Source: a virus
Taxonomy: Duplodnaviria > Heunggongvirae > Uroviricota > Caudoviricetes
Virus record (IMG/VR): IMGVR_UViG_2822641076_000001
Span: 121,830 to 153,621 of that record
Strand: one strand, 5' to 3'
DNA: 31,792 bases
The position numbers and the translations under genes are program-made. Each line of letters starts with the position of its first letter. Within the stretch, counting starts at the first letter, position 1. Positions 8,052 to 13,522 of this stretch are shown here, piece after piece. A model generated the notes under the pieces. It was not told the DNA's origin and ran no database searches. It saw nothing but the letters and a program-made list of their open reading frames with translations.

Positions 8052-8176
8052 GGTATTTTTTTCTAATTATCATATTAGTTTATCCTTCTTTTTAGATAAA
8101 TGGTAGTTCTGATATTCGCAAAATTATATGATATAATTTTCTTAATTAATCAAATAATTTGAAAAGAAGGGATGGT

Positions 8177-9334
8177 ATGGTACAAATAAAGGTAACACCC
8201 GAAAAACTTGAGCAGGTCGCACAACAAGTTAGAAATGCAAGACATGATATAGAGTCGATACATAAACAGTTATATAATCAAATGGAAGATTTGTGTAGTA
8301 GATGGTCAGGTGCAACAGCTCAAAGTTTTTATTACATGTTTAATGATGCTAAACCGAAAGTGTTTGTTATTATTAGTGAGATGGATAAGATAGCAGACGA
8401 ATTAATTCATTCTGCTGTAAAGTTCCGTGAAGCAGATAAACTGGCGGTTGAACTTCCTATTGATGAAGGTGCAATGTGTGGCAAACCCAAATCTGATTTA
8501 GAGAAAGCTTGGGATGGTCTTTATGTTGGTTCAGGAAAAGGTGTTGGAGACGCTTGGGAAGGATTTAAAGCGTTAGGTGACGGTGAAACATGGTCAAACA
8601 TGTGGGATGCTGTTGTCAATTATGATGAGACTCTTCCTGCTATGTGGAACGCTTTCTCAGATTCTTTTATGAATGACGTTTGGCATGGTGATGTCGAAAG
8701 CGGATTCCGCTGGGGTTCTTATTTAGTAACGTCAGTTGGATTGGGACTTCTCGGAGGAAAAGGATTGGATAAAGCTTCTACACTTGCTAGAGGCGCTAGA
8801 TTCTCTAAAATAACTCAAATTACCCCACCACGTTTACAACCTGCTTTTGCAGGTGTTGGGCTAACTGGTGAGGCATTACTTAGTACATTACCATCATCGG
8901 GACACTGGGGAAATTATTTGAGTAGCTATCTTATGTTTGCTAGACCGCATTGGCGAGAATCTGAAAAACATGCAGAAGGAATGTACCCCGAACCAAAGTA
9001 CAGTGACCAAGTATCATTTAAAAATAGAGAAGAAGTCCCTTACGGAACAAAAGGAAGCACAAGACCTGACCGATATAGTCACGAAGCAGGTCACAGCATA
9101 GAAGTTAAAAACTACAATGTTATGACATCTAGTGGTAGACGTTCATTAATAAACATTGTAGTAAAACAGTTTGAAGATAGATTAAAACATCTACCCGAAG
9201 GTTCGCATCAAACTGTCGTGATAGATGTGAGAGGGCAAGATGTAACAAGAGAAATATTGAAGCAGATAAGAGAAGAGATAAACCAAAGAACATTTGGACA
9301 GGCAGAAATTATCATTAAAAAAGATATAAAATAA
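8177..9334 (+). CDS. WXG100-domain T7SS polymorphic toxin with pre-toxin TG-like linker and C-terminal PD-(D/E)xK nuclease
   Basis: N-terminal MVQIKVTPEKLEQVA...RWSG...KFREAD; GLGLLGGKGLDKA linker; C-terminal RPD...IEVKNY. Confidence 0.85.
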   Translation: MVQIKVTPEKLEQVAQQVRNARHDIESIHKQLYNQMEDLCSRWSGATAQSFYYMFNDAKPKVFVIISEMDKIADELIHSAVKFREADKLAVELPIDEGAMCGKPKSDLEKAWDGLYVGSGKGVGDAWEGFKALGDGETWSNMWDAVVNYDETLPAMWNAFSDSFMNDVWHGDVESGFRWGSYLVTSVGLGLLGGKGLDKASTLARGARFSKITQITPPRLQPAFAGVGLTGEALLSTLPSSGHWGNYLSSYLMFARPHWRESEKHAEGMYPEPKYSDQVSFKNREEVPYGTKGSTRPDRYSHEAGHSIEVKNYNVMTSSGRRSLINIVVKQFEDRLKHLPEGSHQTVVIDVRGQDVTREILKQIREEINQRTFGQAEIIIKKDIK

Positions 9335-9348
9335 GTAGGTGATTGAAT

Positions 9349-9765
9349 ATGGCAACGGGATTTATGGTCGATTTTTATTGGTATGAACTAGGTACATCTG
9401 ACTTTGTACATTCATTTTTCTCAACTATTAGTTATCATTTAGAAAAAGAGGGTTGGGGAGAAAAATACCCTTGTTTAATGAAAGAATTATATAGTGGAAA
9501 ACTGAAGACCGAAAATCTTTCAAAAGCAATTAAAGAAACAAATGAGATACGTGAGAAATTAAAGATATTCTTACCATCAGAAGTAGTATGGGATATTGAG
9601 GATTTATCCAAACAGCCACCTTGGGGTGACAACATTTCATCAGAAATAACAGACCTGTCTAACTATTTTGTAACAAGTGATGGGAAAGATATGTTTGAAG
9701 TATTGCTCTACGCTCTCAATGAAGCGCTAGAGGAAGGTGTCGATTTAGAAATAAAAAATGTATAA
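9349..9765 (+). CDS. cognate immunity protein (Imm70-like)
   Basis: Immediately downstream of the toxin; GF.VDFYWYELGTSDFVHSFFSTI.YHLEKEGWGEKYP.LM.ELYSG pattern; acidic. Confidence 0.75.
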   Translation: MATGFMVDFYWYELGTSDFVHSFFSTISYHLEKEGWGEKYPCLMKELYSGKLKTENLSKAIKETNEIREKLKIFLPSEVVWDIEDLSKQPPWGDNISSEITDLSNYFVTSDGKDMFEVLLYALNEALEEGVDLEIKNV

Positions 9766-10223: not shown

Positions 10224-10739
10224 TTGCAGGTAAATTATGATTTGTTAGATATGGTAATGTTAGACGAAGAGATGTATGAACGTTGGTTTGAAGAGATACA
10301 GAAGTTTAATTGTAGCAATGATACAATGAGTAATTATCTTAAACAAAGCGCTTATTATAATTATACCGAATATGAAGAAAATACAACTTTAGTCATATTT
10401 GATGATTGGCTATTTGGGTATTTCACATTAAAAATGGGAGAGATGAATTTATCAAATACATGCAAACCTGCATTGGAAATTAAAAGATTAGCAGTACAAA
10501 ACTCAATGCAGAATAGAAATCTAGGTAGTATGGTCATAGAATATATTGAGGGTATTGCTAGACAAGTTAATGTCAGATTTATAAAACTTGATGGATTGAA
10601 AGAATACGAAGGATGGTATCAGAAGCAAGGATTTAAAGTCATTGAATTAAATGATTCAGGAAATTACACACCAACAGTATTAATGTACAAAGACTTGTAT
10701 GATGAACGCTTGACAGAAGAATATCTTGAGGGACGATAA
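10224..10739 (+). CDS. GNAT acetyltransferase of the TacT/AtaT-like type
   Basis: FNCSNDTMSNYLKQSA, GYFTL, PALEIKRLAV..SMQNRNLG, IKLDGL...WYQKQGF; TTG start. Confidence 0.8.
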   Translation: MQVNYDLLDMVMLDEEMYERWFEEIQKFNCSNDTMSNYLKQSAYYNYTEYEENTTLVIFDDWLFGYFTLKMGEMNLSNTCKPALEIKRLAVQNSMQNRNLGSMVIEYIEGIARQVNVRFIKLDGLKEYEGWYQKQGFKVIELNDSGNYTPTVLMYKDLYDERLTEEYLEGR

Positions 10740-11014
10740 AAGTGTGAAATATTTCATGCTTTTTTATTTCGTCTCAAAACAAAAGAATACTCCTTATTTT
10801 GAGATAGCTAGTTATTTTTGTACAGAAACTAATACAGCATAAGGCACTAACATAGAAGTGTTTGATAATTAAACATTAGCAACTAATGAGCCGTTCACAG
10901 AAAATAATAAATAACCAACTAACATATTTAATGTTGCTATAAAAACATTTCAATTTTGTCTCAATAACACGTCATTACTCGTCTTTTTGAAACGATACTC
11001 AAAAAAGTCATATA

Positions 11015-11042
11015 GCTTCCTATAAGATAGGTTATGTAAACA
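11015..11042 (+). other. dif-like XerC/D (CodV/RipX) recombination site
   Basis: GCTTCCTATAA-GATAGG-TTATGTAAACA versus B. subtilis dif ACTTCCTAGAA-TATATA-TTATGTAAACT: 9/11, 3/6, 10/11. Confidence 0.8.
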
Positions 11043-11062: not shown

Positions 11063-11109
11063 GAAGAGCCTAAGATATGGTAGATTTTTTCCACCCTCTT
11101 AGGCTCTTC
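11063..11109. repeat. 13-bp perfect inverted repeat next to the dif-like site
   Basis: GAAGAGCCTAAGA-N21-TCTTAGGCTCTTC. Confidence 0.75.
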
Positions 11110-11215
11110 TCAATTATGTATTCTTCTAGTCAATTTTCAAGTTAACTCGTGCAACAGTACTGTTCAGATATCTACTGATATTTTACCATAGATTACAATT
11201 GACATCAATATAAAA

Positions 11216-11527
11216 TTAGAACACAATGTGTACGTTTCCGTCTTCGAATATTTCTACACGCTGATAGCAGTCGAGGTAATCAGATGTCGGTTCGACAAGT
11301 CGAGAACCATCCATGAGAGCTGACACTTTGCTTTCCAAAAATCTCAAGTATAAATCTGAATCATAGACTACATCGTAGAATTTGCAAAATTGTCCATCTA
11401 TGACTACTGAACCTGCAAATCTAAATTGAGAGAATCTTTCTTCAAAATAATCATATGCTTCATCATGACTATTAAATGCAGGTAAATTAGTTTCGAACTC
11501 TCTTGTAATTATATCCACAATCATCAC
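11216..11527 (-). CDS. hypothetical protein
   Basis: 103 aa; strong SD AAAGGAGTG. Confidence 0.75.
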   Translation of the reverse strand: MMIVDIITREFETNLPAFNSHDEAYDYFEERFSQFRFAGSVVIDGQFCKFYDVVYDSDLYLRFLESKVSALMDGSRLVEPTSDYLDCYQRVEIFEDGNVHIVF

Positions 11528-11749: not shown

Positions 11750-12844
11750 ATGAACGTTTCAGTTAAGGGAAATGAGAGAGTTACACAACTGTTAAATGAG
11801 TGGTATGTAGAAATTCGTGCTAGAAGGATTGGACAAGCACATCGACTGAAAGAAGAAATTGATAAACAGATTAATAATATAGAAGAAGACCAAAATCTCT
11901 TATTATATTATTCACTTCTAGATTTCCGCTTTCAATATGTTATTGATAATCTAGGTGTCTCTGCAAATAGTTTTGATAAGGTTGAGTCTTTCGAGATTCC
12001 TACAAATAATTTCTTAACTTACTATTACCATTTCTTTAAAGCAATCCACGCTTCAAGTATTGGTAATTATACAATTGCAAAAGAACACTTCGACAAAGCG
12101 GAAAGCCTTCTTGAATTAGTACCCGATGTGATTGAAAAAGCTGAGTTTTACTATAAGCTAGGTGCTTTCCATTATGATATTTATGAATCACTTAACTCAG
12201 TTAAATATGCTACGAAAGCAAAAGAAATTTTTGAGAAGAATGAGAATTATGAACGAAACGTGGGATTCTGTGAAAACCTTTTAGGTATGGCATGTACTAA
12301 TCTAAGAGAATGGATATTAGCAGAAGAACATCTTGTGAAAGCTATGGATATTTTTCAAAAGCTTAATGAGGAAAAATTCATCCTTATGGTTCGCCATAAT
12401 CTAGGTCTTCTTTATGCAGGACAAAACATGTCTGAATTAGCTATCAGATATTTATCGGAAGTATCTGAGAAAAAACCGAACCACTTTAAAGCAATATTCA
12501 TTGAAGCGAAGGAACATTATAAATTAGGAGAGTACGATACGACAGCAACATTGATTGCAAAAGGACATCAATTATGTACTGAGCTTGGCAATAAAGAATA
12601 CTGTCATCATTTCGAAATTTTAAACGCTCTTAATGGAAACGTTCTAGCCGAAGAGCTTGAAGGAATTGTTTTAGCAGGAGTTTCATATTTTGAAAAAGAA
12701 GAACTATATGAATACATTCAAGAATATGAGGAGCAATTAGCAGTTCGCTTTTATAAAGAAAGCAACGACTCAAAAGCAAGCAAATACTTCTATTCAAGTA
12801 CTCAAGCAAGAAAAAAATCTCTTGATAAGGGGGCATTAAAATGA
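11750..12844 (+). CDS. rap: Rap-family response regulator aspartate phosphatase (TPR)
   Basis: LLNEWY.EI...EEDQNLLLYYSLLDFRF N-terminal bundle; TPR-like repeats; SD GAGGAGG. Confidence 0.92.
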   Translation: MNVSVKGNERVTQLLNEWYVEIRARRIGQAHRLKEEIDKQINNIEEDQNLLLYYSLLDFRFQYVIDNLGVSANSFDKVESFEIPTNNFLTYYYHFFKAIHASSIGNYTIAKEHFDKAESLLELVPDVIEKAEFYYKLGAFHYDIYESLNSVKYATKAKEIFEKNENYERNVGFCENLLGMACTNLREWILAEEHLVKAMDIFQKLNEEKFILMVRHNLGLLYAGQNMSELAIRYLSEVSEKKPNHFKAIFIEAKEHYKLGEYDTTATLIAKGHQLCTELGNKEYCHHFEILNALNGNVLAEELEGIVLAGVSYFEKEELYEYIQEYEEQLAVRFYKESNDSKASKYFYSSTQARKKSLDKGALK

Positions 12845-12972
12845 AGAAAGTAATATCTAGTTTAATCGGGATTATTACTGTTTTAACATTGACGTTCGGT
12901 GTTCAACCACCTACAGAAGTACAGCAAGCTTCCGATGTAGTTCAATACGCACATGGAGACCACGGTGGTTGA
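12841..12972 (+). CDS. phr: Phr signalling pre-peptide (43 aa; absent from ORF track); predicted mature peptide GDHGG
   Basis: MKKVISSLIGIITVLTLTFGVQPPTEVQQASDVVQYAHGDHGG*; signal-peptide-like N-terminus; ATGA overlap with the rap stop. Confidence 0.9.
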   Translation: MKKVISSLIGIITVLTLTFGVQPPTEVQQASDVVQYAHGDHGG

Positions 12973-12989
12973 TAATTTAAATGTGACAG

Positions 12990-13020
12990 AGACTAGGTGA
13001 ATTTCATCTAGTCTTTTTTT
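12990..13020 (+). terminator. rap-phr terminator
   Basis: AGACTAG.TGAA/TTCA.CTAGTCT + T run. Confidence 0.75.
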
Positions 13021-13165
13021 ATTTATCATCTTGCATACCAGTTGACTCCCATCATTACCATCATTTGTGCAAGGATATAGAATTGATTGTATGATATAAT
13101 AATATGTCAATGTTTTGGTTTAAGGTATATGGGTTTGTGATACTAAAATAGGATGTGTTGTTAAA

Positions 13166-13522
13166 TTGCTCAAAGATACGGTTGGTTTAAATCTAAGACG
13201 TATTAGAAAGCTACGTGGATACACGTTAAAAACACTATCTGAGCAGACAGGTCTCTCGTTTGGCTACATATCAAAAATTGAAAACGGTCGCAACCTCCCT
13301 AGTCTTGAAGCTATGGAGAAAATCTCAGATGTATTAGAAACTGAGATTTATTTTTTCTTTCTACCGAACAACGAAGAATCTGTAGAAAGATTATATGAAT
13401 GGAGTTCTTTACTTGAGGATTTTGTGACACGAGGCATCACTCCACATGACGTAAGAGAGGCAATTGAAGCAATAGATAAAGCATACAGCATTCTAATAAA
13501 GCAAAAAGCTAATGTAAAATAA
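13166..13522 (+). CDS. XRE-family HTH regulator with SinR/SinI-like C-terminal domain
   Basis: LRRIRKLRGYTLKTLSEQTGLSFGYISKIENG.NLPSLEAMEKIS; C-terminal EWSSLLEDFVTRGITPHDVREAI parallels SinR EWEKLVRDAMTSGVSKKQFREFL. Confidence 0.85.
   Translation: MLKDTVGLNLRRIRKLRGYTLKTLSEQTGLSFGYISKIENGRNLPSLEAMEKISDVLETEIYFFFLPNNEESVERLYEWSSLLEDFVTRGITPHDVREAIEAIDKAYSILIKQKANVK

Follow-up and report, generated by a model that had tools for sequence, protein, structure and literature searches.

A composite dif-like module of Bacillus plasmids in the genome of a probable phage-plasmid: a candidate site for host Xer recombination

We analysed a stretch of 31,792 nucleotides (henceforth referred to as 'the window') that forms the final 31.8 kb of a 153,621-bp IMG/VR record of a tailed phage, which is rated 94% complete, has no end repeats and truncates the last open reading frame of the window at its own end. 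A 28-mer in this window is likely to be the crossover core of an Xer-type site for resolving multimers, carried by a plasmid-prophage (phage-plasmid) of the Bacillus cereus group. It forms the right-hand edge of a non-coding module of ~290 bp, and the same composite layout is found on large Bacillus plasmids.

The dif-like 28-mer and its surroundings

The 28-mer occupies positions 11015-11042 (+) of the window and consists of GCTTCCTATAA, GATAGG and TTATGTAAACA. Its coordinates and its match to the dif site of B. subtilis (reference sequence taken from PMC3025954) had been given in a preliminary description based on the sequence alone and were reproduced exactly: 22 of 28 positions agree, comprising 9/11 in the left arm, 3/6 in the core and 10/11 in the right arm. 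By the same measure, the runner-up 28-mer across the whole 153.6-kb genome reaches 19/28. When compared with Bacillus chromosomal and plasmid arms, the left, CodV (XerC)-type arm GCTTCCTATAA (11015-11025, +) agrees at 10/11 positions, the sole difference being the G at position 1, a variant that is common among mobile-element sites; the right, RipX (XerD)-type arm TTATGTAAACA (11032-11042, +) also matches at 10/11. The 6-bp central region GATAGG (11026-11031, +) shares 3/6 positions with the chromosomal TATATA, namely positions 2-4 (ATA), and its mismatches adjoin both arms. Two 11-bp inverted arms, separated by 6 bp and matching the arms of the host dif, make up the layout of an Xer/dif core site. 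A query consisting of the arms only (ACTTCCTATAA-N6-TTATGTAAACT) found the site with 2 mismatches, i.e. 20/22 arm positions are those of the Bacillus dif arms. Allowing up to 3 mismatches, the same query had no match in 100 dinucleotide shuffles of the window, and at up to 2 mismatches none was seen in 200 first-order Markov simulations of the 153.6-kb genome, the best of which reached 3 mismatches once. The match to dif exceeds chance, and the dif-like 28-mer is present in a single copy in the phage genome.

The 28-mer lies inside a 476-bp gap between a GNAT gene on the + strand (ending at 10739) and an open reading frame of 103 amino acids on the − strand (11216-11527). We confirmed that the + and − gene blocks converge at the site, as had been described, and the cumulative GC skew also peaks there, at 133-136 kb. 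From left to right the gene order is WXG100/LXG-type toxin, Imm70, RHH, GNAT, the site, the 103-aa ORF, a Rap-type gene, HTH, holin and, farther on, the tail genes, and the site is in an accessory zone beyond the lysis genes. At window 8159-9765 lies the gene for a protein of 391 amino acids with WXG100 as its N-terminal domain, by its layout a polymorphic toxin of the LXG type, and an Imm70 immunity gene follows; as read from their domains, these genes are a phage-borne toxin/immunity cassette. The Rap-type gene (RapH_N plus TPR; window 11750-13522) is followed by an HTH_3 gene, a pair that may provide a quorum-sensing input to lysogeny. At the DNA level, rap genes of large B. thuringiensis plasmids share 81-84% identity with this one, and the 2,245-aa tail protein has counterparts in PBC2 and other large Bacillus siphoviruses at 42-45% identity; on the strength of this tail-protein kinship and rap identity we take the host to be a member of the B. 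cereus group. Megablast and blastn searches of the region against the phage collection gave no matches. Just to the right of the site, a strong hairpin (11063-11107; −26 kcal/mol, z = −6.2) lies outside the plasmid-shared module and is probably a terminator that shields the site.

The preliminary description had also pointed to three SpoIIIE-type octamers, GAGAAGGG, at window 5891 (+), 7485 (+) and 16910 (−), all directed toward the site. Both the positions and the direction were right, and the octamers of the whole genome (6, against a mean of 4.0) point toward the site in 6/6 cases. The support that they were thought to give to the site fell away, since 87% of the other G5A3 octamers converge on it as well (p = 0.44); these octamers point toward the site because they follow the coding strand. 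The GAGAAGGG skew does not exceed what composition explains and was rejected as evidence of a chromosome-type dif guided by polar translocase motifs (KOPS/SRS).

The composite module on plasmids and in a related phage

When the 476-bp gap was compared with PLSDB by blastn, B. cereus-group plasmids matched at 70-79% identity across window 10760-11041. The homologous stretch comprises ~255 bp of upstream non-coding DNA together with the 28-mer and does not continue to the right of the latter; the genes that flank it are different in every plasmid (que genes, an ars operon, ArsR-type genes and others). The module of plasmid CF4-51 p1 matches at 79% identity. One composite layout was found (alignments A1 and A2, and scripts) in 15 elements, namely the phage and 14 plasmids, the latter being a minimum count and coming from B. 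cereus, B. thuringiensis, B. mycoides, B. subtilis (pBS72), B. halotolerans, B. licheniformis and Peribacillus simplex. From left to right, this layout consists of a palindrome of 33-34 bp, a spacer of 20-22 bp, a left arm aCT.CctATAA, a variable 6-bp core and the right arm TTATGTAAACT. Across the 15 elements the left arm is variable and the right arm is constant save for its final base in the phage, so that TTATGTAAAC is invariant in 15/15, and the cores differ, those of the plasmids being TAAAGG, TAAAGA, TATAGG, GATTTC, TAAATC, TTTATC and TACATC. In the spacer (10994-11014, 21 bp in the phage) the length is fixed, with 21 bp in 12/15 elements, and the sequence is free. The earlier view that the 28-mer is an Xer-type site, and neither the host terminus nor an att junction, was supported; the preliminary description had not noticed the two palindromes or the kinship of the module with plasmids.

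The proximal palindrome (GTCTCA-N24-TGAAAC; 10958-10993), the right half of which is TGAAAC in the phage and not TGAGAC, stands at an equal distance from the arm in the 14 plasmids, and the distance from palindrome centre to core centre works out at ~53 bp, or five helical turns. The distal palindrome (10771-10805, with the centre AAGAATACT) is a second copy of the motif. Both copies are on the CodV-arm side and share a 33-34-bp consensus, TCTCA..AAGnATACT..TGAGA, and the specific motif was found in the phage genome at the site locus only. A distal copy lies 135-215 bp upstream of the proximal one in 15/18 plasmid or phage elements and at 0/17 chromosomal sites.

A search with the endolysin led to a related phage, IMGVR_UViG_2541047117_000001 (henceforth referred to as G001), which is 80-97% identical to the phage studied here, and 80-91% in blocks syntenic with the window. 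Its contig of 152,852 bp is rated 100% complete, and the format of its ID suggests that it came from an isolate genome. G001 has exactly one dif-like site, which is syntenic, reads GCTTCTTATAA GATATC TTATGTAAACT and is accompanied by both palindromes. Between the two phages, identity amounts to 75% in the GNAT gene, 65% in the stretch separating the two palindromes and 64% in the spacer, and rises to 85% in the distal and 94% in the proximal palindrome; the arms agree at 20/22 positions and the core at 4/6 (GATAGG versus GATATC). The site is therefore conserved in a related phage, a point on which the preliminary description had made its interpretation depend, and the retention of arms and palindromes above a background of 64-65% is, as judged from this alignment, the footprint of selection. 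The 170 bp that separate the site from the 103-aa ORF are 89-100% identical in the two phages, with 100% at window 11100-11149. In place of the ORF itself, right of the site, G001 has unrelated DNA, and this replacement looks like a cassette swap beside a recombination site.

Some carriers depart from the common layout. The plasmids Bt L1 unnamed2 and pG9842_140 have both the RepA type and the site in common with the phage, and no homologue of the phage tail protein was found in either. The proximal palindrome is missing in Bt L1 unnamed2, where the replacing DNA holds a stray XerD-arm-like TTATGTTAACT ~20-40 nt upstream of the site; pG9842_140 keeps a degenerate regex match at −56 and has the diverged TTATGTAGTCT at the corresponding position. 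These arm-like remnants may be the scar of a past recombination between Xer sites. In addition to the main composite site, pHS18-2 (NZ_CP012101.1) and pBM206 (NZ_CP072058.1) each contain another three dif-like sites, whose left arms are of the form ..ATAAC; two of these stand in tandem, 0.2-2 kb apart, an arrangement reminiscent of pdif modules. The labels of four PLSDB 'plasmid' records (NZ_CP093325.1, NZ_CP030101.1, NZ_CP083716.1 and CP079755.1) are doubtful: those of Bacillus (5.5 Mb), Listeria (2.9 Mb) and B. velezensis (807 kb) resemble chromosomes or parts of them, and a 361-kb 'Klebsiella grimontii' record that carries a B. cereus-type module is probably mislabelled.

IMG/VR contigs also contain 49 distinct dif-like sites that combine canonical Firmicute arms with varied cores and form families, each with upstream conserved DNA of its own. 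One such family has a CCTTAA core after a CGAACAT..ATGTTCG inverted repeat, in elements of 12-19 kb that, to judge from their IDs, come from isolate genomes; in a second family, made up of 7 large contigs from one metagenome, the core is GCAACT. The palindrome was found at 0/49 of these sites, and 58 IMG/VR contigs with canonical arms were rejected as kin of the phage, being unrelated to it and lacking the palindrome. The word of the distal palindrome was absent from viral contigs and had a single match in bacterial genome contigs, in a Fibrobacterota MAG, which we judged to be due to chance.

The palindromes and chromosomal dif

The chromosome-like records made it possible to look for the palindrome beside dif itself. 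The 5.5-Mb Bacillus chromosome has its dif, ACTTCCTATAA TATATA TTATGTTAACT, at the midpoint and a degenerate copy of the palindrome near it; the dif of the B. cereus group, which contains AATATATATT, is known to lie at the skew maximum (PMC3210476). A dif of the B. subtilis type is present in the 807-kb B. velezensis record, which appears from this dif sequence and the flanking genes to be chromosomal, and here a palindrome with the centre AAGTATACTT ends 20 bp before dif. No palindrome was found at the Listeria dif. A metagenome scan for dif sites with a TATATA core gave 100 distinct sites with enough flank, and 17 of these have TCTC-N22-28-GAGA ending 22-25 nt before the arm, where a rough estimate of the chance expectation is ~0.06 sites per 100. 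A distal copy within 500 bp was found at none of the 17, and such a copy was seen on mobile elements only. As the palindrome occurs at chromosomal dif, the mobile elements would seem to copy an extended Bacillus dif, alter its core and add a second palindrome.

The favoured reading of the palindromes, held with somewhat more than even confidence, is that they are protein-binding accessory sites. We think it rather unlikely that they are hairpins, either intrinsic terminators or cruciforms, that only insulate dif-type sites from transcription. Such hairpins would agree with the symmetry of three positions flanking TCTC/GAGA, which is above that of shuffled partners (p ≤ 0.003 at two positions), with the excess of G:T pairs (16) over A:C pairs (8) and with the T-runs that come after the block in some plasmids. 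Against this, the sequence itself, and not just its pairing, is constant in the core letters and in the centre AAGnATACT, the distance of 20-22 bp to the arm is fixed despite the free sequence of the spacer, and covariation on alignment A2 is no higher than in shuffles. The phage blocks, moreover, form weak folds (−8.2 and −6.9 kcal/mol, z about −1.3), an A-run comes after the proximal block, and by eye T-runs are missing after many chromosomal copies. The palindromes matched no Rfam family, and no consensus terminator was called at them.

If the palindromes bind a protein, a wider reading is possible, which we put forward tentatively: in a clade of Bacillaceae, dif itself would be composite, the palindrome TCTCA..AAGTATACTT..TGAGA at ~21 bp (20-22) from the CodV arm would dock a putative factor that controls CodV/RipX, and plasmids and phage-plasmids would have copied the composite, changed the core and added a palindrome for autonomous, resolution-only recombination. 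If true, this bears on the missing direct activator of CodV/RipX, as neither SftA nor SpoIIIE is known to activate these recombinases directly (PMC5357621).

Replicon, recombinases and alternative explanations

The phage encodes a RepA initiator with HTH_36 and DnaA_N domains that shares 30-33% identity with the initiators of plasmids, pBS72 among them, and downstream of repA are 8-9 palindromic iterons and an AT-rich tract, which suggests a theta-type replicon with a pBS72-type RepA/iteron origin. G001 has an initiator of 97% identity, and ~70.5 kb, or ~166 degrees of the circle, separate it from the site. The first 95 bases of the G001 contig equal its last 95, and it follows from this overlap that the assembly of G001 represents a closed, extrachromosomal molecule in which the site is intact. 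The circular, extrachromosomal state envisaged in the preliminary description is thereby suggested for G001; since the record to which the window belongs has no end repeats and is 94% complete, we infer circularity of the phage studied here from its relative. The phage also encodes an MrpR-type repressor (its third recombinase-fold gene). Neither a serine recombinase nor a ParA-type partition gene was found in its genome, and an actin-like partition protein adjoining repA was not confirmed, the match being weak (E = 0.0025) and two further searches empty. The element is probably a large B. cereus-group phage that is maintained as a plasmid.

As to the recombinase, no Phage_integrase domain was found in the window, and the earlier remark that an integrase is lacking holds for the window but not for the genome, which has two tyrosine recombinase genes with this domain, at 7.7 kb and 30.8 kb. 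The former encodes a 324-aa Xer-like protein (genome 7,702-8,676, −) that has the R..HxxR..H..Y motifs, is apparently catalytically intact, and matches XerA/XerC-like structures, at the level of the family only. Both in the phage and in Bacillus phage PBC2 the Xer-like gene lies within or adjoins the virion structural genes, that of PBC2 (8784-9761) coming directly before the tape-measure gene. No homologue of the 324-aa protein was found in 3/5 module-bearing plasmids, and no tyrosine recombinase was found in pBS72, though the composite site is present there; host enzymes are thus the likely catalysts. CodV is known to favour the left half-site and RipX the right-hand one, which is the conserved half (PMC5357621), and the pattern of conservation seen here agrees with this. 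Because the half-sites are conserved in this manner and the arms equal those of the host dif, CodV and RipX of the host are most likely to be the enzymes that act at the site.

The explanation that we prefer sets out from the observed site and its statistics, the module, its conservation and presence on plasmids, and the replicon; which enzymes act, which way the reaction runs and what the palindromes do is inferred from these. Host CodV would bind the left arm and host RipX the right arm. In a dimer of the circular phage genome, two directly repeated copies of the site would synapse and recombine, which would yield monomers and ensure stable inheritance. The non-chromosomal core (GATAGG instead of TATATA) would keep the site from recombining productively with the dif of the host or with plasmids in the same cell that have other cores. 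The two CodV-side palindromes, one 21 bp from the arm and one ~190 bp farther, would be accessory elements that most probably bind a putative host protein shaping the synapse and, like the accessory sequences of cer and psi, favour intramolecular resolution.

Several alternatives were weighed against resolution by the host enzymes. That the phage's own 324-aa Xer-like recombinase uses the site, in a Cre/lox-like manner and from a gene far away, seems rather improbable: phage-plasmid P1 does use its own recombinase, and this precedent, the intact R..HxxR..H..Y motifs and the XerA/XerC-like structure matches all speak for it, but the composite site is also found on pBS72 and on plasmids without a homologue, its arms are host dif arms, the palindrome also flanks chromosomal dif, and the gene is ~28 kb from the site even when measured across the record ends. 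Because the site lies among plasmid-like accessory genes (Rap, toxin/immunity), the module could instead be passenger DNA, taken from a resident plasmid along with neighbouring accessory genes and without a selected role in the phage. We regard this as improbable. The 81-84% identity of rap to B. thuringiensis plasmid rap, the 79% match of the module to CF4-51 p1 and the swap of the adjacent 103-aa ORF in the relative fit such an origin, whereas the arms and both palindromes are kept at 85-94% in the two phages against 64-75% in the surrounding DNA, and the site is single-copy, at the point of gene convergence, and almost opposite the origin in the complete G001.

The preliminary description had left two roles open, and one of them, IMEX-style integration at dif, was not supported: we consider it highly improbable that the 28-mer is an attachment site by which the phage integrates at the chromosomal dif or at a plasmid Xer site via host Xer. 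Both phage records, of which one is self-closing, contain the site uninterrupted and away from their ends, and the genome has two Phage_integrase-domain genes; furthermore, a theta-type plasmid replicon is present, the module also serves plasmids, and the core mismatches dif at the positions adjacent to the arms. On the other side are the dif-like arms, the lack of an integrase adjoining the site or in the window, the location just past the lysis genes, which is the usual place of attP in temperate siphoviruses, and the agreement of core positions 2-4 (ATA) with dif. The other proposed role, in which host CodV/RipX resolve dimers of a circular plasmid-prophage and the divergent core limits fusion with the chromosome, fits the plasmid-shared module, the plasmid-type replicon, the closed G001 contig and the conservation in G001.

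Among known systems, the nearest are cer of ColE1 and psi of pSC101. In common with these, the phage site has a core of the host XerC/D type with a centre unlike that of chromosomal dif, putative accessory DNA of ~150-250 bp on the XerC-arm side only and, in the role proposed for the phage, a place in multimer resolution of an autonomous circular replicon. It differs in that the host is a Firmicute (with CodV/RipX) and the carrier a 153-kb tailed phage, and in that PepA, ArgR or ArcA sites are replaced by two copies of a 33-34-bp palindrome, one of which is also found at chromosomal dif. The chromosomal dif of B. subtilis and its use by CodV/RipX were reportedly described by Sciochetti in 1999 and 2001. 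The same system has since been reviewed (PMC5357621). The phage site shares with it the 11-6-11 layout and near-identical arms and, on the evidence of the B. velezensis record, a palindrome 20-22 bp from the left arm, but its core is GATAGG and not TATATA, it has the extra distal palindrome, and it sits on a phage-plasmid instead of at a chromosome terminus. Cre/loxP of P1 serves a tailed phage that is likewise kept as a circular plasmid and needs site-specific resolution of dimers; P1, however, encodes the recombinase itself, and its site of 34 bp bears no relation to dif, whereas the phage site copies host dif and host enzymes are likely to act on it. The IMEX phages of Vibrio (CTXphi, VGJphi and TLCphi) are also mobile elements with a dif-like site for host Xer, but they integrate at chromosomal dif with hybrid flanks, and the phage here has a plasmid replicon and an intact site. 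Finally, the pdif modules of Acinetobacter plasmids are plasmid-borne dif-like sites with varied cores, and some Bacillus plasmids also have several sites; pdif sites form inverted pairs that bracket gene modules, whereas the phage has one site with accessory palindromes (PMC11705084).

In the literature searched, which covered Xer sites of Bacillus plasmids, the arm and palindrome sequences, and pBS72, we found no description of the composite site. Host-Xer-dependent resolution sites of plasmids are textbook knowledge for enterobacteria, and for plasmids or phages of Bacillus the searched literature yielded no description of such a site. The ~290-bp module is defined and testable, and is common to a tailed phage-plasmid and to many large Bacillus plasmids, the carriers including toxin-bearing B. 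thuringiensis plasmids and pBS72. The replicon of pBS72 underlies Bacillus cloning vectors, and the module could be a practical stability element for Bacillus vectors. Since the palindrome is also found at chromosomal dif, it offers a concrete lead to a putative accessory factor of Xer recombination in Bacillus.
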